52,329 nucleotides of DNA from Escherichia virus TH53: sequence record MT446419.1; one strand, 5' to 3'. Below, piece after piece: positions 2,631 through 17,334 of this stretch. Under the pieces are notes generated by a model. It worked only from the letters and a program-made list of their open reading frames with translations. It ran no database searches and was not told the origin of the DNA. Both the position numbers and the translations under genes were made by a program. Position 1 is the first letter of the stretch, and each line of letters begins with the position of its first letter.

Positions 2631-3451
2631 TAACAGAATACGGAGAAGTATTCCGCATGTCATGTTGAAATCATTCTAGAAACATTTCAGCATGTCAACT
2701 AAACATACAGTGTTGTAATGATGTGGCAATCATTGAACTCCCTGTCTTTGGCCGGACAAAGTTCCAACAACCATGTGTGAAGTAGGATTATCATTCGAAA
2801 CTGTTACTTCAATATAGCATGTTCAATTGCGACAATATTGCCCCATCTCCTATTATAAAGGCCCACCCACAAGCCGGGAGATAACTTTGGTAATATTGGA
2901 ACTTTTGGACATGCTTCTTTCTTTCAATCAGAATTCGAAAGGGGAGAAGAAGTCGGACAAAGCCTCTCGTTTTCACGCAGAAGCCGCCCCGATTTTGAGC
3001 AACAAATATTGTGACAATATTGTCGCAGTATGGCATGTAAATATTGCTACAAATTGGCATGTTGGAATGTGGCAGAATTGTTAGAGGACTAATCACCTCG
3101 AAGATACAATCGTCTACCAATCTGGCATGTTAATTTTGTAACAGTATTTGTGCCAATTTCGCATGTAGTATTTAACCCAATATTCTTGCAACCCGCATGA
3201 ATACTGGCTTCCAGCCAAGCGAAGGCTTTATCATCGCATGTAATATTGTGACAATATTGGGATAAAACCCTTTATTTAATTAGTTTTATTATGCTGTACA
3301 TGGTCGGTTTTCCGTACCTGCTTGCTCCAATCTTAATGTGCCAAATACGTTAAGTATGGGAGTAAACCTGTAATTAATGGTGCATGTTTAATTGTGACAA
3401 AATTCGTCTATTTGGCAGATGAGTTAGTTGCAATTAAGCATGTTCATTTAT

Positions 3452-3470
3452 CATTAGTTGCATGTGAATA
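3452..3470 (+). promoter_or_regulatory. variant motif CATTAGTTGCATGTGAA, copy 2
   Basis: Degenerate copy about 190 nt upstream of the first early gene at 3662. Confidence 0.35.
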
Positions 3471-3661
3471 AGACCAAATCTCTGTAAATTCTGCTGAAAT
3501 TGTGTGACAGATTTTAGAGAGATTATGTCTCCAAGCTAATCATTGTAGTTTTTCGGCACTTGCTGTGTCACATACTCCCTACAGCTTTAAGGTGGATTGA
3601 GGTAAGACAAGACCTCCACAATCGTTCTGTAGGGAGTTTTCTTTTAACTTAGGAGAATAAA

Positions 3662-10882: not shown

Positions 10883-11114
10883 TTTAAATATTGCTGAACT
10901 TGAGGCTGGATTGATTGTTCACCACCAGCCTAGAAACACTTTCTATCGTATTCTTGGGCCTACAAAGATTAAAACTCACTGCGGAAGTTGGGTGGATGGG
11001 TTTGCTTACCAGGAAGTGAAGAAGTACGGGGACCATACTTTCTTGAGTATTGACTCTTCTACTATCTACACACGACCGAAAGAGCTATTTGACTCAGATT
11101 GGAAAACACTATAG
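10875..11114 (+). CDS. hypothetical protein
   Basis: ORF with weak RBS. Confidence 0.4.
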   Translation: MRDLNIAELEAGLIVHHQPRNTFYRILGPTKIKTHCGSWVDGFAYQEVKKYGDHTFLSIDSSTIYTRPKELFDSDWKTL

Positions 11115-11183
11115 TTCCAGGCGGGTTTCTTCGAAGTGCCAAGCGGGTTTTGTGCTCGCATTGGCCTTCGGCTTTAGTCTGAA

Positions 11184-11200
11184 ACATTAGTGGGATTTGG
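11184..11200 (+). promoter_or_regulatory. motif ACATTAGTGGGATTTGG, copy 4
   Basis: Preceded by TCTGAA as in copies 5 and 6. Confidence 0.45.
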
Positions 11201-11324
11201 TTCTGGCCACTTAGGGAAGAAAGGCATTATACACTTATCGCCAAATGGGTGTCAAGCATTTTCTTCATTTATTTTAATTTATTCTTATTATTCTTTTTGT
11301 TTGGAATATTGGAATAATTCTGAA

Positions 11325-11343
11325 ACATTAGTTGGAATTGAAG
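11325..11343 (+). promoter_or_regulatory. motif ACATTAGTTGGAATTGAAG, copy 5
   Basis: Tandem with copy 4, about 140 nt downstream, separated by an AT-rich stretch. Confidence 0.5.
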
Positions 11344-11979
11344 AAACAACATCAGATAATAACTTTGTAACTCGGTAGACCGTTGCGGCCGCATCGTGTG
11401 AGAATGTTCGACTCATTCTACAAAGTTATTTTCGATGGAATGTTTCCATCATATACATTTATCTTTTAACATAGGCCATAGGGCCGGAATACTTCTTCGC
11501 AGAAAAGCTATTCACTTGTTATAGGCGATGTATTGGGATGAATTGGAACTAAATAAGCAAGCTGTTAGGGCTGAATAATTAGAGGGTCATGCCTCATGCT
11601 TATGTTAGTCATTCGAAAATAGGTTTGTGCCACAAGCTGCTGGTGCTCTGAGGAAGTCGGACAAACAGGGCTTAGAGTGGCATAATCCGCACAAAACCGC
11701 GCCACCAGCTATGCCAAAGCAGGTGGATTGGGTGAATGTATTGGGAAGGGTTGCAAAGCCTCTGTGACACGCCTGAGCCACAAGGCGACGACACTCATGT
11801 GATTAGCGTATCGCACCCTAACGGGAGCAACCCTTCACCAATGCAGTTATCCAGAATTGACACAAACGGTAGGCAGTGGCCCGATTTTCGGCCTTCCTGC
11901 GCTACTCTGTGGCCTGTTTCCTGGGCCAAAAGATGAGAAGAGAAGTCACAAACATCGAATCGAAAATTGGAGAGTTCCT

Positions 11980-12558: not shown

Positions 12559-13233
12559 ATGTCTTATCATGATGATGACAAAGAGATTGCACTATCAACG
12601 TGTAAGCAATGGCTCAATGATAATGATGCCGTCTATCTTGCCAAGGAAGATGTTATCATTATGTGGGTCCATTTTAATCCAGAATCGAAGCGCGGTGAGT
12701 GGCAACGCTACAAGATGAAAGAGGCTTGTCGCATAATTAAAGCCACACGCGCTGGCTTCTCTGCTATGAAGTACATCAAGCCAGAGATGCTAATGCTTGC
12801 TGCACAGGAAGAAGAACGTGCATATAAGCAAGCTGTTAAATCTCGTTCAACTGTTCCTCCAGAGTTCTTTAATTTGGAGCGCGCTGGACACTTCAACAAT
12901 TTAGAAATGTTGACACTGTGCCTGTTGCAAGAATTAGTTGGAAGGGGTCAAAACATTGAAGCTGTTTGTCTTGGAGAACTCATGAAAGAGTTGTTCTCGG
13001 CAAAGGGCTTTGCTGTACCAAATCGAACTTTACGCTGGAAATTGTTGCGAGCAGTCGCGCAAGAAGCTGGTGTAGTTGTTCGTGACAGAACTAACCGACT
13101 TACCGTAACAGGAGTTGGGCGTTTTGTAGCAATCCAGATTGAGGGTTATGACGAATCAATCATCACTGAACTCACTGTCGCTGAGACAAAGGATTTAGTA
13201 AATAAAACACTGGAACGATTCAATAGGTATTGA
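12559..13233 (+). CDS. hypothetical protein
   Basis: First ATG after the upstream stop; no motif recognised. Confidence 0.5.
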   Translation: MSYHDDDKEIALSTCKQWLNDNDAVYLAKEDVIIMWVHFNPESKRGEWQRYKMKEACRIIKATRAGFSAMKYIKPEMLMLAAQEEERAYKQAVKSRSTVPPEFFNLERAGHFNNLEMLTLCLLQELVGRGQNIEAVCLGELMKELFSAKGFAVPNRTLRWKLLRAVAQEAGVVVRDRTNRLTVTGVGRFVAIQIEGYDESIITELTVAETKDLVNKTLERFNRY

Positions 13234-13262
13234 GTCGTTTGACGAATCAGAGCAGTTCTGAA

Positions 13263-13283
13263 ACATTAGTTGGATGTGGAAAG
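13263..13283 (+). promoter_or_regulatory. motif ACATTAGTTGGATGTGGAAAG, copy 6
   Basis: Ends 74 nt upstream of the ATG at 13357. Confidence 0.55.
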
Positions 13284-13356
13284 AGAAAGGCTCTTTAATT
13301 TTATCTAAGTCACGTCACCGTGGCGTGCAAAACTATTCAATATAAGGTATATACAA

Positions 13357-13695
13357 ATGGCTAAGATTGTAACCGTAACTCAGTACGAAGCTAACGATGG
13401 TTCCCTGTTCCTGACCGAAGCAGAGTGTAATGCACACGACTTCAAACTGGAAAACGGTGCTAAAATTGAGAAAGCTGCCGAAGCGTACCTGAACACCGTT
13501 GGTGCTATCGACCGTTCTCGCTCCATGCAGAAGAACACCATCGAGCAGTTCCTGGCATTCTACCTGCCGTGGGTTGAAGCTGGTGAGCCGGAAGTTGAGC
13601 GTACTAAGTTCGATACTCCGAAAGAAGCTAAAGTTGCTGACGCAAGTGTTGCCGAAGCTGCCGAAGCTGCGGTTGAAGAAGCTCCGGTATTCTAA
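13357..13695 (+). CDS. acidic, alanine-rich protein
   Basis: Strong RBS, own promoter-like motif, acidic C-terminal tail ending in F. Confidence 0.6.
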   Translation: MAKIVTVTQYEANDGSLFLTEAECNAHDFKLENGAKIEKAAEAYLNTVGAIDRSRSMQKNTIEQFLAFYLPWVEAGEPEVERTKFDTPKEAKVADASVAEAAEAAVEEAPVF

Positions 13696-14851
13696 GTTGC
13701 CGACGGCAAACTTGAGAGACTAAGCTAAATCGATCTGGCATGCACTGGAAGTTTTCCGGTGCTGCCTTGAACCCATTCTGAAAGGAAGAGTGGGCTTCAA
13801 TGAGCATTCTTGTGATTAGAGTTGGGAGGTAGGCCGATGCCCAATCTCGTGGCCCAGACAAGAGTGTTCATTGAAGTTATTTCAATATGGATGTACAGTG
13901 GAATGAGAAGCTTCTCCGATAAGAGGAGTGAAAGTAGCTGGAGGACATGCCCACAGAACTGACCGAGACCCATTACAGTAGTAGCGATTCACTACCGCGA
14001 AACAGTATTGAAATTGGCAACGGTTCATGCGGAAGGGCATCGGTGAAATCTACGTTCAGTACGCGTGGTGAAATGAAGGAGTAGTGTCCTGAGAATTAAC
14101 CCTGTCTGGTTGAATGCCAGAGTCCATATTGAAGTAGTTTTCTGAGTCTTACGACGGGCCTAAACTGCCTGGAGTTATTGCGACTGTTTTATTCATTTAA
14201 AATAAATGCAAATGATTCTGAAATGCGAGTTGCGGCTTAATTAAATTTAAGTCCTCTCCGTGGTCTTCCAATCCCACGTAACCAAATTTGGCGCATTGTG
14301 GCTTCGAGATGTGATTAATAAATCGGAGCAATAATTAATTTGTATTCTGCGATGCAATGCAGGCTTAAGTCCCTCAGTGCGCGTGGGGATGTGACAGAGT
14401 ACAAACTTAATTATGCAGTTGGATATTTCTAGAGGACGGACGAGCACACTGGAATGTCTTCAATTGGTTTAGTGTGAGAAGCTATGCCAATTTGAAACGT
14501 AACTCCTTGAGGAAGTGCTCCTCTGGATTTCCCTCCACACAGGAATCTCAAGCCTGTGGCAGCGACTTCGAAGCTGCACTGCGTAACCTAATTCACCCTA
14601 AAGTGAGTTGCCCTGAGCATGGAAATAAACTGCTCTAACCGATGGTATCTACAAAGGTAGATTAAATCAGGTTGCCTGTTGGTACTTGGGTTCAACACCT
14701 GCTTGCACTCGCAAAGTAGTGCCTCGTACCTGAGATGAAGTGAGTCGGGACCATCAATCCCACGTTATGTCAAAACACAGTAGGCGACTCACGGATTCTA
14801 CAAGCCTCGCAGTTCGGGAAAACCTGCGTTACCAAAACCCTCCTATTCTTT

Positions 14852-14944
14852 GGACGAGTAGCTCAGAAGGTCTGCTCCAGAGCTTAGTCAGGTAGAGCAA
14901 TCTGTTCGACAGATGTGTCGTTGGTTCGAATCCAACCTCGTCCA
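14852..14944 (+). tRNA. tRNA-like element: canonical acceptor stem and T-arm, non-canonical D/anticodon region
   Basis: Seen: acceptor GGACGAG / CTCGTCC, T-arm GTTGG-TTCGAAT-CCAAC, D-arm halves GCTCAG and GGTAGAGC separated by about 24 extra nt, hairpin TCTGT-TCG-ACAGA. I could not fold a standard anticodon arm; isotype undetermined. Confidence 0.5.
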
Positions 14945-15122
14945 CCCACTTTCAACAATAACATGGAGTCCTCATGGACATTGATGCACTAGACAATTTG
15001 GACTTCGGTGCTGCCGAAGAAGCAATTGAAGAACTCAAAAAGAAGCAGGACGAAGAAGCAATCGTTCCTGGAGAAGGCGATAACGATTGTACAAGTGGTG
15101 CATGCGCCATCTAAGGTGAATC

Positions 15123-15359
15123 ATGCAACAGCTTAAATCAATAGTTCTTGGCGTCCTGACTGCATTTGGTATTCTTATTGCAGTGTTCCTCAAAGGCAAA
15201 AGCTCAGGCAAAGCCGAGGAGCGTCAGGAAGCCACAGAGAAGCAACTAGATTCATTAAAAGAATCTATCGAGATTAAATCGCATGTTCAGAAAGAAGTGT
15301 CTAGCAGTTCTGATAGCAATGTCGATAGTGAGTTGCTCTCAAAGTGGGTTCGTAAGTGA
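15123..15359 (+). CDS. i-spanin-like protein (Rz-like)
   Basis: N-terminal TM segment IVLGVLTAFGILIAVFL followed by a charged coiled-coil region; the next gene is embedded in another frame. Confidence 0.55.
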   Translation: MQQLKSIVLGVLTAFGILIAVFLKGKSSGKAEERQEATEKQLDSLKESIEIKSHVQKEVSSSSDSNVDSELLSKWVRK

Positions 15360-15492
15360 TTATTGCTTAATTGCACAACCAATCTATTTGGATGTTGCAG
15401 AAGTGAAAATCTTATCGCGCGAAACCAAAACACAGATTTTAGTCCACAATGAAACGTGGGCACAAAAGTGTTCGAAACTTACCCGACAGTGA
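15283..15492 (+). CDS. o-spanin-like lipoprotein (Rz1-like)
   Basis: Signal peptide with lipobox IVSC (MFRKKCLAVLIAMSIVSC); starts inside the i-spanin ORF in the +1 frame and runs past its stop. Confidence 0.55.
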   Translation: MFRKKCLAVLIAMSIVSCSQSGFVSDYCLIAQPIYLDVAEVKILSRETKTQILVHNETWAQKCSKLTRQ

Positions 15493-16396
15493 GTTGAACA
15501 TGGCCTAGCTAGTTGGTGGTGTAAAAGACTGACCAAGGTGACGACAGCCAAACAAATGCTCGCCATCGCATGAACAACATTTGGCAGTCCGGTACGGGAC
15601 TTTAAATACACGTACATTATAGTCGAGGGGGTGCGCGACTTTAAATAACGAGACTCTAGCCACTTGTGGTATAGCAGGTGTAATTCCTGCAATTGCTCTG
15701 GGCATAACAATTGAAATTGCTGCCTCGTATTGAACGCGAGAAAGTTCAGGTAGTCACTTCCTAGAACAGTGGCCGGGAACAGACCTAGACAAAAGTGCTT
15801 GAGAACGTTAGCTCTGTCTTGCCAGCATTAATGGCACGTTGGCCGCGTAAAGGCCACAGCGTCTGACCAACGTATCGGTCGCCAAATTCAATGGATTCGT
15901 AGAGTTAATTAAACCTGCACGATGGGATAGGGATGTAGCATCCGAGGCCGACTGTGTAATTGTGAACTTATCGTTCGCCGAATCCGCCAATTTACCTCAA
16001 CAGTTATGCCTCTGTTCAAAAGGCTCAAGAGAGCGTCTGGCATACCGTAGCGATACGGCTTAGTTGCGCTGATTGTGTTGTGCAGAAAGAAAGTTCAGGC
16101 TTTCGTTTGGGTTACTCCTCATCCCGAAGTTAGCTGGATTCAAAATCCAGACTATGTTCCTATACACATGAAATATGCAAGTCGAGGGTTCTTAATGTTC
16201 AAACATGATGCGAGCATTAAGCGGGTTTATACTTTTCCCCGATGGTCCCCATAAACAAGGCTGATTCACTTGGGCGGTTCGAATCAAATTTAATAAGTGT
16301 CTTGGCCGCAGTGGAAACATCATTTAAGCCAATGTATTGTAATGTTCGTAATAGTCCACGTCAGGACACTTACTTAAATTTTAACCGGAGAGAAAC

Positions 16397-16627
16397 ATGA
16401 AAACTGCTGAAATTGCCGAAGAGATTTATAAGGCCGTAATAGCCAGTCAAATTACCAGTGAAGTCCTGCACATGGATATTGAAGAAGTTCGCAATGCCTT
16501 TGGCGGTTTTGCAATCTTGTCAATAGAAGCTGCGGAAGCACTGACAAACACGTACAATCAACGCGAATATGAAAAGCGTTCTGTACTAAATGCGTCGCTA
16601 AAAGAAATTCAGGCGTCATTAAAATAA
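16397..16627 (+). CDS. hypothetical protein
   Basis: RBS context AACCGGAGAG, repeated before the next gene. Confidence 0.5.
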   Translation: MKTAEIAEEIYKAVIASQITSEVLHMDIEEVRNAFGGFAILSIEAAEALTNTYNQREYEKRSVLNASLKEIQASLK

Positions 16628-16683
16628 TACCATTATCATGGTGCGGAGCTAATTTATCTCCCACCATATGAACCGGAGAGCAA

Positions 16684-17334
16684 ATGATTACTGCAACACT
16701 CGTTGACCACATGGGCAGCGACCTCACAACTGTTAATGCTGCACGAGCCTCTTATGGTGCAGAGTCCCACGAGATGACATTGCGCGACGAGAAGCTGATT
16801 GAATTTCTCGCAAAGCATAAGCACAATACACCTTTTGCCCACGCGTATGTAACACTACGTTGTACAGCACCAATCTTTATTGCGCGGCAGCTTGGCAAAC
16901 ATCAAGTTGGTTTTCGCTGGAATGAAGTTAGCCGTCGTTACAAAGATGGCGAAGCAATCGAAATTGAATGCTTTGTACCTGATGTGGTGTTTGGTCGTCC
17001 TGAAAAGTTGATGACTCAGACTGCACAACCATTGCCACAGGATTTTGCTGACGATATTCACTATCGCATGGAAATCCACAACAAGGCTTGCATTGCAGAG
17101 TATGAAACACTAATTGGTTTGGGGATTGCTCCAGAACAAGCTCGAATGGTGTTGCCACAATCTATGATGACTACATGGATTTGGACTGGTTCTCTGCTGG
17201 GCTGGGCCAATATGTACAAGCAACGCTCTACAGAGCACGCCCAATATGAGGCACGTTTGTTTGCAGAAGAAGTTAATAAAATTATGTCAGAGTTGTTTCC
17301 TGTTTGCTGGGAGGCACTCATTAAACAGGAATAA
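16684..17334 (+). CDS. ThyX-like protein (flavin-dependent thymidylate synthase family) with divergent signature
   Basis: Seen: KHQVGFRWNEVSRRY where ThyX has RHR-x7/8-S-xRY; ThyX-like N-terminal VNAARASYG and C-terminal TTWIWTGSL...HAQYEARLFAEEV. Confidence 0.6.
   Translation: MITATLVDHMGSDLTTVNAARASYGAESHEMTLRDEKLIEFLAKHKHNTPFAHAYVTLRCTAPIFIARQLGKHQVGFRWNEVSRRYKDGEAIEIECFVPDVVFGRPEKLMTQTAQPLPQDFADDIHYRMEIHNKACIAEYETLIGLGIAPEQARMVLPQSMMTTWIWTGSLLGWANMYKQRSTEHAQYEARLFAEEVNKIMSELFPVCWEALIKQE

Follow-up and report, generated by a model that had tools for sequence, protein, structure and literature searches.

The closest described counterparts of the element considered here, a structured RNA predicted within positions 15493-16396 (904 nt) of Escherichia virus TH53 (record MT446419.1; the whole stretch of 52,329 nt is called the window below), are the GOLLD and ROOL RNAs. 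These RNAs, whose function was unknown at discovery, are several hundred nucleotides long, contain many pseudoknots, join a conserved core to variable peripheral stems and are phage-borne beside tRNA-type genes, and the same description suits the TH53 element. Their hosts are mainly Firmicutes and lake or rumen bacteria, whereas the element here occurs in phages of Gammaproteobacteria, is smaller (a conserved unit of ~385 nt) and appears to lie inside a transcription unit of a T7-type polymerase; in addition, the GOLLD and ROOL covariance models gave no match. The stable RNAs species 1 and 2 of phage T4 (rnaC and rnaD), which are cut from a common precursor, are likewise phage-encoded, of unknown function and beside tRNA genes, but they measure ~120-140 nt and carry CCA ends, and neither similarity to them nor a CCA-type end was seen here. 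Transfer-messenger RNA (tmRNA, SsrA, including its two-piece permuted form) shares a string of H-type pseudoknots and a short resemblance in its 5' region, and the same block contains, 1.8 kb upstream, a tmRNA-like tag module; however, the TH53 element has no acceptor stem, CCA end, conserved tag frame or model match, and occurs independently of the tag module. The end of the element recalls the RNase III hairpins of T7, being an intergenic helix of ~20 bp (two turns) with a small internal loop, placed before the next ribosome-binding site in a phage with a T7-like RNA polymerase, but this likeness accounts for the last ~95 nt only, the T7 sites are single hairpins, and cleavage here is predicted by analogy. 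Finally, the tobamovirus 3' untranslated region, an upstream pseudoknot domain with a tRNA-like structure, also leads from consecutive small pseudoknots into a larger folded domain; this is a likeness of form only, to the aminoacylatable 3' terminus of a eukaryotic RNA virus. No published description of the element was found in the literature, and it is a new RNA family of a recognisable kind, a large ornate phage-borne RNA beside tRNA-type genes, like GOLLD and ROOL and without detectable homology to them.

Comparative analysis strongly supports the view that 15493-16396 is the template of a highly structured non-coding RNA on the + strand, and that its constant part, the core, is a conserved fold with multiple pseudoknots. 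An earlier note on this DNA had proposed either a structured RNA locus or a physical genome terminus, to be refuted if termini mapped elsewhere and neither a stable RNA nor conserved structure was detected; conserved structure was found, since covariation in an alignment blind to structure points to a ~385-nt multi-pseudoknot fold with smaller pseudoknot modules upstream. Compensatory changes were already visible in the first alignments. RNAalifold, run on the raw MAFFT alignment, recovered the fold only in part. The core helices were defined by hand and then tested on 25 distinct sequences, newly aligned with MAFFT and without structure information. Standard pairs occupied 94.2% of 1,191 cells, against 27-45% when the 3' partners were slid by 1-3 columns. 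Changes on both sides were observed at 35 of the 52 pairs (8-18 with slid partners), double-change cells numbered 139 (11-28), and the covariation score was 0.335 (<=0.07), while 0 of 500 shuffles matched any observed measure. The cells held 62 G-U against 13 A-C combinations, and therefore the folded strand is assigned to the + strand.

The fold (Table 1) opens with an H-type pseudoknot, PK-A, for which helices 1-3 of the test were 96-100% paired. Its stem 1 was observed as CAG/CUG, UAG/CUA, UGG/CCA, GAG/CUC and AAG/CUU, and its stem 2 as GCCU/AGGC, GCGU/ACGC, UCUU/AAGA, GCAU/AUGC and GCCA/UGGC. In the following domain, four positions of the closing helix Px were canonical in 25 of 25 sequences with at most four pair types per position, and the junction that Px closes carries three hairpins, V1 (variable), Hsd and V2 (variable). 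The stem of Hsd differs across lineages (GGG/CCC, GAG/CUC, GUGU/ACAC, CCAG/CUGG) around a nearly invariant CTCCT loop. The motif ATGAAATAT[G/A]CAAG was constant in 25 of 25 sequences save for its one G/A position, which covaries with a C/U in GGCATA. Within the 3' domain, V3 is a variable hairpin and H9 pairs CGGG with CCCG; a helix x/x' beside H10, supported by some lineages only, is tentative. The terminal helix Pterm comprises 8 + 7 bp by covariation, with double changes at 7 of 7 pairs in part b, and by inspection it extends through UUGGC to ~20 bp with a small internal loop; in ST32, JL1 and locus L102, ~70 nt of its interior are gone and the stem is retained. In the core as a whole, junctions and loops were near-invariant and peripheral stems variable.

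A separate observation concerns the flanks of Px (16074-16078/16164-16173), which are CUGAU (5' side) and UGAAA (3' side). Tandem sheared G-A pairs could arise between them, in the manner of a kink-turn or C/D-box-like motif; neither flank varies, and hence no covariation signal is possible.

Table 1. Positions of the predicted structural features in TH53 (numbering of the window)
Feature	Position	Strand	Pairing, basis or remark
tmRNA-like coding module	14199-14330; tag open reading frame 14208-14240		unannotated
Two tandem H-type pseudoknots	15589-15658	+	common GACUUUAAAUA, equal to the direct repeat of the earlier note
Conserved hairpin module TTGCTCTGGGCATAACAATTGAAATTGCTGCCTC	15693-15726	+	95-97% identical between genera
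Accessory local hairpins	15757-15777, 15842-15856, 15865-15880, 15930-15942 (within 15735-15996)	+	found in some close relatives and missing from others
Core structured RNA element, ~385 nt	15997-16381	+	nhmmer profile, covariation
PK-A, 5' H-type pseudoknot	16000-16024	+	stem 1 16000-16003/16012-16015; stem 2 16008-16011/16021-16024
Domain with two long-range closing helices	16040-16178	+	Plong and Px, around Pa and a three-hairpin junction
Plong	16040-16044 with 16174-16178	+	100% paired; C-G to U-A in 4 sequences
Hairpin Pa	16045-16058; 16045-16047 with 16056-16058	+	
Px	16074-16078 with 16164-16168	+	98% paired; double changes at 4 of 5 pairs
Hairpin Hsd, conserved loop CUCCUCA	16109-16125	+	loop resembles anti-Shine-Dalgarno
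Variable hairpin V2	16134-16150	+	hairpin of the earlier note; hairpin of different sequence at the same place in other genera
Near-invariant motif ATGAAATAT[G/A]CAAG	16167-16180	+	contains 3' strands of Px and Plong
3' domain	16181-16285	+	V3, H9, H10, PK-B
PK-B, loop pseudoknot	16181-16183 with H10 loop 16273-16275	+	middle pair U-G, C-G, G-C, A-U
H10	16263-16267 with 16281-16285	+	GAUUC/GAAUC, GGUC/GACC, AGUCC/GGACU, GAUUCC/GGAAUC, UUGGAA/UUCCAA
Pterm, terminal long helix	16286-16381	+	part a 16286-16293/16374-16381; part b 16295-16301/16365-16371
Inner helix in Pterm	16311-16315 with 16355-16359	+	

According to BLAST of 13600-16500 and the records of its relatives, the window belongs to a myophage like phiEcoM-GJ1 (GJ1 below) of the family Chaseviridae, subfamily Cleopatravirinae, genus Carltongylesvirus. 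This search returned 80 phage-record matches, the best at 92-97% identity, and the relatives matched include Escherichia phages EcoM1, DE15, phiEcoM-GJ1, flopper, ST32 and Mangalitsa; EcoM1 and GJ1 are nearest, and identity to Mangalitsa is ~94% here. The Carltongylesvirus relatives are myoviruses. Their genes all lie on one strand and include one for a T7-like single-subunit RNA polymerase. The 904-nt query alone matched 68 phage records, and every homologue, from ~68 phage records plus 6 metagenome contigs, is Chaseviridae-like. Loose DNA pattern scans of metagenome and genome collections yielded chiefly chance matches, and the core profile was used as a filter: nhmmer retained 29 loci, including the 6 metagenome contigs, and 0 of the 53 bacterial-genome loci that the loose pattern had pulled. 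Conservation is deepest at ~16000-16312, which is recognisable in Erwinia phage Faunus, Escherichia phage 4HA13, Aeromonas phage phiA050 and Pectobacterium phage PM1. The core was found in every Cleopatravirinae genus sampled, with a divergent copy in the Loessnervirus phages Y2 and SSEM1 and in an IMG/VR contig. In five genera it occupies the same position, between the spanin genes and a module of a small gene, ThyX and primase, and the shared layout runs from a small gene through a ~1.2-kb gap, the spanins and a ~0.9-1.2-kb gap to a small gene, ThyX and primase/helicase. In addition, some relatives have HNH homing-endonuclease genes inserted where the RNA blocks begin or end, or behind ThyX, namely DE15 (locus L003, 3317-3763), 4HA13 (L006, 675-1106) and GJ1 (L001, 5025-5468), and the window has none; these insertions fit with conserved RNA sequences serving as homing targets.

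Coding content was searched for in the same segment, which makes up nearly 2% of the genome and is left blank or given spurious small open reading frames (ORFs) in existing records. The absence of a credible ORF was borne out. Mechanical ORFs on the + strand span only 33, 32, 59 and 52 aa, those on the - strand 108, 66, 60, 44, 35 and 43 aa, and the five longer ones tested had no PHROG family match. The longest + strand ORF (16075-16254) is disrupted by 1-nt indels among GJ1, L012 and TH24. A near-invariant ATG at 16168 starts a frame that a conserved TAA ends in some phages, and the peptides predicted from it are unrelated in sequence, the shortest having 5 residues and the longest more than 25, again with single-base indels between GJ1, L012 and TH24. 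It is highly improbable that the segment consists of unannotated small protein genes. Such a view could draw on the 'hypothetical proteins' of 30-80 aa annotated here in Mangalitsa, DE15, JL1, PYps23T, Y2 and SSEM1, but the called ORFs disagree in strand, frame and position between records, indels between close relatives are not multiples of three, and substitutions in the stems are compensatory, not synonymous. On either side the genes are sound: the pair 15123-15359 and 15283-15492, called a spanin pair in the earlier note, agrees with Rz-like spanin annotations in relatives, and the downstream gene 16397-16627 belongs to phrog_32967 (4.7e-53). Both neighbours of the gap, the o-spanin and phrog_32967 genes, are complete and mutually unrelated. 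There are no split exons, and no Rfam group I intron model matched at E <= 10. Rfam 15 gave 0 matches in the whole window at gathering thresholds, and at E <= 10 over 13600-16500 the only match within 15493-16396 was a 17-nt chance match of snoRNA type, so the Rfam comparison suggested in the earlier note returned no family for the region.

Two local features had originally drawn attention to the segment. The hairpin CTGGATTCAAAATCCAG exists in a single copy, 6 nt downstream of the place first reported (16128-16144), and the direct repeat GACTTTAAATA starts at 15598 and 15637 just as described, where it can be extended to 18 nt at 89% identity (15591-15608 and 15630-15647). By our own estimate, ~0.1-0.3 each of an 11-nt repeat and a 7-bp hairpin are expected by chance in 904 nt, and 15-mers with <=3 mismatches were not enriched in the window; either feature alone is not beyond chance. 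The hairpin becomes meaningful because other genera keep a hairpin there with different sequences, and the repeat because it equals the common stem and loop of two tandem pseudoknots, of which the second has a covarying stem. Copy 1 reads AGUCC-(G)GUACG-GGACU-UUAAAUACA-CGUAC (pairs AGUCC/GGACU and GUACG/CGUAC) and copy 2 AGUCG-AGG-GGGGU-GCG-CGACU-UUAAAUAACGAG-ACUCU (pairs AGUCG/CGACU and GGGGU/ACUCU). Copy 2 was found in Carltongylesvirus, Loessnervirus, phiA050 and three metagenome contigs, and its stem 2 varies as GGAGU/ACUCU, UGGG/CCCA, UGAAU/AUUCA and UGAG/CUCA. An account of GACTTTAAATA as a promoter was rejected: it matches the T7 promoter at 12 of 18 positions, but the genome has no copies of it beyond the two in this segment.

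The 5' half to which these pseudoknots belong (15493-15996) is organised differently from the core. Between genera, stretches of 19-40 nt are 90-100% identical and differ in order, and close relatives differ by entire modules: ~15860-15996 is missing from PYps23T and L012, GJ1 has no first module, JL1 carries a 245-nt insertion, and in DE15 an HNH endonuclease gene is inserted just upstream. The TTGCTCTGGGCATAACAATTGAAATTGCTGCCTC module changes its stem from UUG/CAA to GGUG/CACC in one contig (L014) and may form a pseudoknot of GGGCA with UGCCU, whose second stem is invariant and thus outside the reach of covariation; an accessory hairpin similarly changes from GACC/GGUC to GGCC/GGCC in JL1. 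We read 15585-15995 as accessory, with small pseudoknots and hairpins strung together more loosely as modules that are gained, lost and reordered, and the core as the constant unit. A pairing of 15701-15714 with 15997-16010 had no support from 4HA13 and was dropped. A likeness to the rrn boxA was noted in TGCTCT...TAACAATT (15694-15716). At the upstream edge, 15510-15527 (TAGTTGGTGGTGTAAAAG) was rejected as a phage or sigma-70 promoter, as its conserved part is GGTGGTGTAAAAGACTGACC and not a promoter core, and the spacing is unfit. The module GGTGGTGTAAAAGACTGACC (15507-15545) is conserved in DE15, JL1, 4HA13 and one metagenome contig, and over 39 nt it matches two T4-like Serratia phages, PS2 and SP1, at 90-92%. 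In Klebsiella phage VLCpiS13b, a related TTGGTGGTGTA overlaps the -10 region of the sigma-70-like promoter before the tag RNA.

The transcription context was approached with a promoter weight matrix built from nine promoters predicted in the GJ1 record (consensus ACATTAGTTGGATGTGAA). Sites were found at 247, 2610, 3449, 7350, 11182, 11323, 13261, 21324 and 41208, with a weaker one at 12929, and there was no consensus match between 13281 and 21323, nor a + strand sigma-70-like promoter or intrinsic terminator in 13200-16800. On this evidence, both gene-free blocks are probably read through from 13261 as part of a long transcription unit of the phage RNA polymerase. Two other ORF-poor stretches, 2668-3660 and 11114-11857, are accompanied by matches to the predicted consensus, at 2610 and 3449 for the former and at 11182 and 11323 for the latter.

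The same results bear on the possibility that the constraint acts at the DNA level, on a replication origin or single-strand initiation signal that pairs in single-stranded DNA. The segment lies directly upstream of the primase/helicase and DNA polymerase genes, origins of T7-like replisomes lie near class II genes, and folded single-stranded DNA would show pairing constraints too. However, T7-type origins consist of phage promoters followed by an AT-rich stretch, whereas no promoter was matched here between 13281 and 21323 and the G+C content is 41-49%. Moreover, several pseudoknots with near-invariant loops are unlike known single-strand initiation signals, the excess of G-U cells fits RNA better, and the Nefertitivirinae replicate without the element. 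We consider a DNA element very unlikely.

A physical genome terminus or packaging site, the other proposal of the earlier note, is extremely improbable; gene absence is all that speaks for it. Chasevirus genomes are terminally redundant and non-permuted with repeats of ~3 kb (ICTV profile, PMC12842549). In 4HA13 the direct terminal repeat is 3,120 bp (PMC9699118), and in Mangalitsa PhageTerm gave terminal repeats of 3,234 bp, the opening point of that genome being chosen to put the RNA polymerase gene after the repeat (PMC6753284). These repeats adjoin the RNA polymerase gene, which in the window is 333-2273 and lies ~13-15 kb from 15493-16396, placing the termini of relatives ~15 kb away. In addition, neither a repeat-boundary signature nor a long internal repeat was found in 13696-16400.

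The gap upstream of the spanins adds to the picture of a 2.7-kb block occupied by a tRNA-like element and two lysis genes, which was incomplete in that it omitted a tmRNA-like tag module. This module runs from AAAATAAAT through a 10-codon SsrA-type tag to a conserved hairpin with loop GAUGUGAUUAAUAA; in TH53, AAAAUAAAU is followed by GCA AAU GAU UCU GAA AUG CGA GUU GCG GCU UAA, i.e., ANDSEMRVAA*. The module recurs, always with a 10-codon tag of the form AND/ANE...AA or ...VA, in other chaseviruses, including pAh6-C of the Nefertitivirinae (ANDDLMLAAA). Unrelated phages have it too, often next to tRNA genes: the Ackermannviridae, with ANDDVVLMAA in Klebsiella phage Magnus, and siphophages of 48 kb from the Klebsiella, Salmonella and Aeromonas groups, while the 48-kb Klebsiella phage VLCpiS13b has ANEEVYLAVA; ANDNEMRAAA is a further tag observed. 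ARAGORN made no call on the module, and the Rfam tmRNA models stayed below threshold at 21-27 bits.

Several further observations were made around this module. The tRNA-like gene at 14860-14945 has a ~20-nt insertion in its D-loop region and scored 27.9 bits with the Rfam tRNA model (threshold 29) without an ARAGORN call, and its GJ1 and DE15 copies are called tRNA-Leu(CAG) of 95-97 nt by ARAGORN and tRNA-Arg, 'may contain an intron', in GenBank. The first gene-free block (13700-14950) contains modules conserved across genera and partly reordered (13810-13860, 14608-14678, 14796-14840), a long-range complementarity of 13878-13891 with 14123-14136, and a hairpin (14677-14697) whose loop GUACUUGGGUU resembles the H10 loop of the core. 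Downstream of the tag module, Magnus (L202, 1390-3129) and VLCpiS13b (L203, 1385-1815) have 0.4 to >1.5 kb of gene-free DNA, tRNA-like in places (GGTTCGATTCC, GGGTTCGACTCCC) and with a motif GCACCGGCCACCA; this stretch is annotated with tiny hypothetical ORFs in Magnus and without features in VLCpiS13b. PM1 has a true tRNA-Cys (L008, 2760-2833; 47 bits) within the gap that corresponds to the second one of TH53, at a distance of ~100 nt upstream from the core.

The core could also be the second piece or a decayed copy of a phage tmRNA-like gene, its structural tRNA-like half partnering the upstream tag module. The covariation-supported H-type pseudoknots (PK-A, PK-B and the tandem pair at 15589-15658) recall PK1-PK4 of tmRNA, AAGGCTGATTCACTTGGGCG agrees at 17 of 20 positions with the tag-bearing RNA of VLCpiS13b, in its 3' part (E = 0.08), and resembles the tmRNA 5' end, GGGGCUGAUUCUGGAUUCGAC, and a similar loop ACUUGGG is present in the 14677-14697 hairpin. 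This explanation nevertheless appears quite unlikely. The Rfam tmRNA models are silent in the region even at E <= 10, ARAGORN found neither tRNA nor tmRNA in the window, and no tRNA cloverleaf was detected in 15493-16396 by ARAGORN or the Rfam tRNA model; the V2 loop, UUCAAAA, is reminiscent of the anticodon loop of a Leu(CAA) tRNA, but is not conserved. There is no acceptor stem, as neither a complementary 3' strand nor a CCA follows GGCTG (16259), and the frame from the GCA at 16176 is conserved in neither length nor sequence, giving 5 to >25 codons with unrelated ends between phages. Furthermore, the UUCGA similarity belongs to one strand of a stem and is lost through covariation in PM1 and Y2, and the two elements occur separately: PM1 has the core and no tag module in the 6 kb examined, whereas pAh6-C, Magnus and VLCpiS13b have the tag without the core. 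Paralogy of the core with RNAs of the upstream gap, VLCpiS13b or Magnus was also rejected, since the profile search gave nothing significant there.

For the role of the RNA, we prefer a processed stable RNA that is cut free from the polycistronic transcript and acts in trans, possibly on the translation apparatus, and place about half of our confidence in this reading. The conserved core would be its functional unit, a folded RNA binding a host or phage partner, because near-invariant junctions combined with variable peripheral hairpins are the pattern of ribozymes, riboswitch aptamers and ribonucleoprotein scaffolds. Release would occur by cleavage in the ~20-bp terminal helix, as at the T7 RNase III sites, and the freed RNA would accumulate as a stable RNA. 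Our guess of a partner in the translation machinery is prompted by the tmRNA-like tag and tRNA-like neighbours and by the anti-Shine-Dalgarno-like loop.

Alternatively, and possibly, though with clearly smaller probability, the RNA stays on the downstream message (small gene, ThyX, primase/helicase, DNA polymerase) as a cis-acting leader that controls how this message is translated, how stable it is or how it responds to temperature; the ribosome-binding site could, for example, be gated by the terminal helix together with the CUCCUCA loop. Pterm stops 4 nt before the ribosome-binding site of the 16397 gene (GGAGAG-N6-ATG) and abuts it likewise in other genera, the element always precedes the replication module, and the small downstream protein shows weak homology across genera. 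In addition, replication of these phages is far poorer at 37 C than at 20-30 C (PMC6266442, PMC13340011, PMC6753284), which an RNA thermosensor could explain. Position and conservation pattern fit a riboswitch or regulatory leader, but no terminator or antiterminator was found, the ribosome-binding site is unpaired in the predicted fold, and its complementarity to CUCCUCA is 4 bp only and beyond covariation testing. Moreover, ~385-900 nt with several pseudoknots is far above known leaders and thermometers in size, and in Y2 and SSEM1 a 199-aa gene intervenes between the core and the small gene.

Several points weigh against a processed, trans-acting RNA. The element always ends beside a ribosome-binding site, which a cis-acting leader fits equally well, and the proposed link to translation is a guess from neighbourhood and short motifs. 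The core is absent from the Nefertitivirinae phage pAh6-C and hence not needed by every chasevirus. Minimum free energy z-scores were unremarkable, at -1.1 (+ strand) and -0.6 (- strand) for the core and -0.5 for the 5' half; such weak values are, in our experience, usual for pseudoknotted RNAs, and the evidence is therefore comparative, not thermodynamic. The literature searched on this phage group (GJ1 relatives, ST32, Mangalitsa, 4HA13, PP101, Tiny and the ICTV profile) does not mention the gaps and holds no transcriptome data. According to the ICTV profile (PMC12842549), chasevirus promoters have not yet been identified, and our matrix rests on the GJ1 predictions.

A bolder reading, which we regard as doubtful, is that the element represents a new class of large tertiary-folded phage RNA with the complexity of a ribozyme, riboswitch or ribonucleoprotein, and that with the tmRNA-like and tRNA-like genes it forms an RNA island manipulating host translation or ribosome rescue, either by decoying a factor of ribosome rescue or tRNA targeting or as a temperature-responsive switch behind the cold-favoured growth. 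RNAs this large with such conserved tertiary structure are rare, and those later solved do sophisticated jobs. An entry in RNA family databases would stop the annotation of such stretches as hypothetical proteins. The phages infect E. coli, are easily grown, genetically tractable and in development for biocontrol, and deletion and compensatory mutagenesis could probe the element directly. It may bear on the temperature-dependent growth of these phages and on the role of the adjacent tmRNA-like gene.

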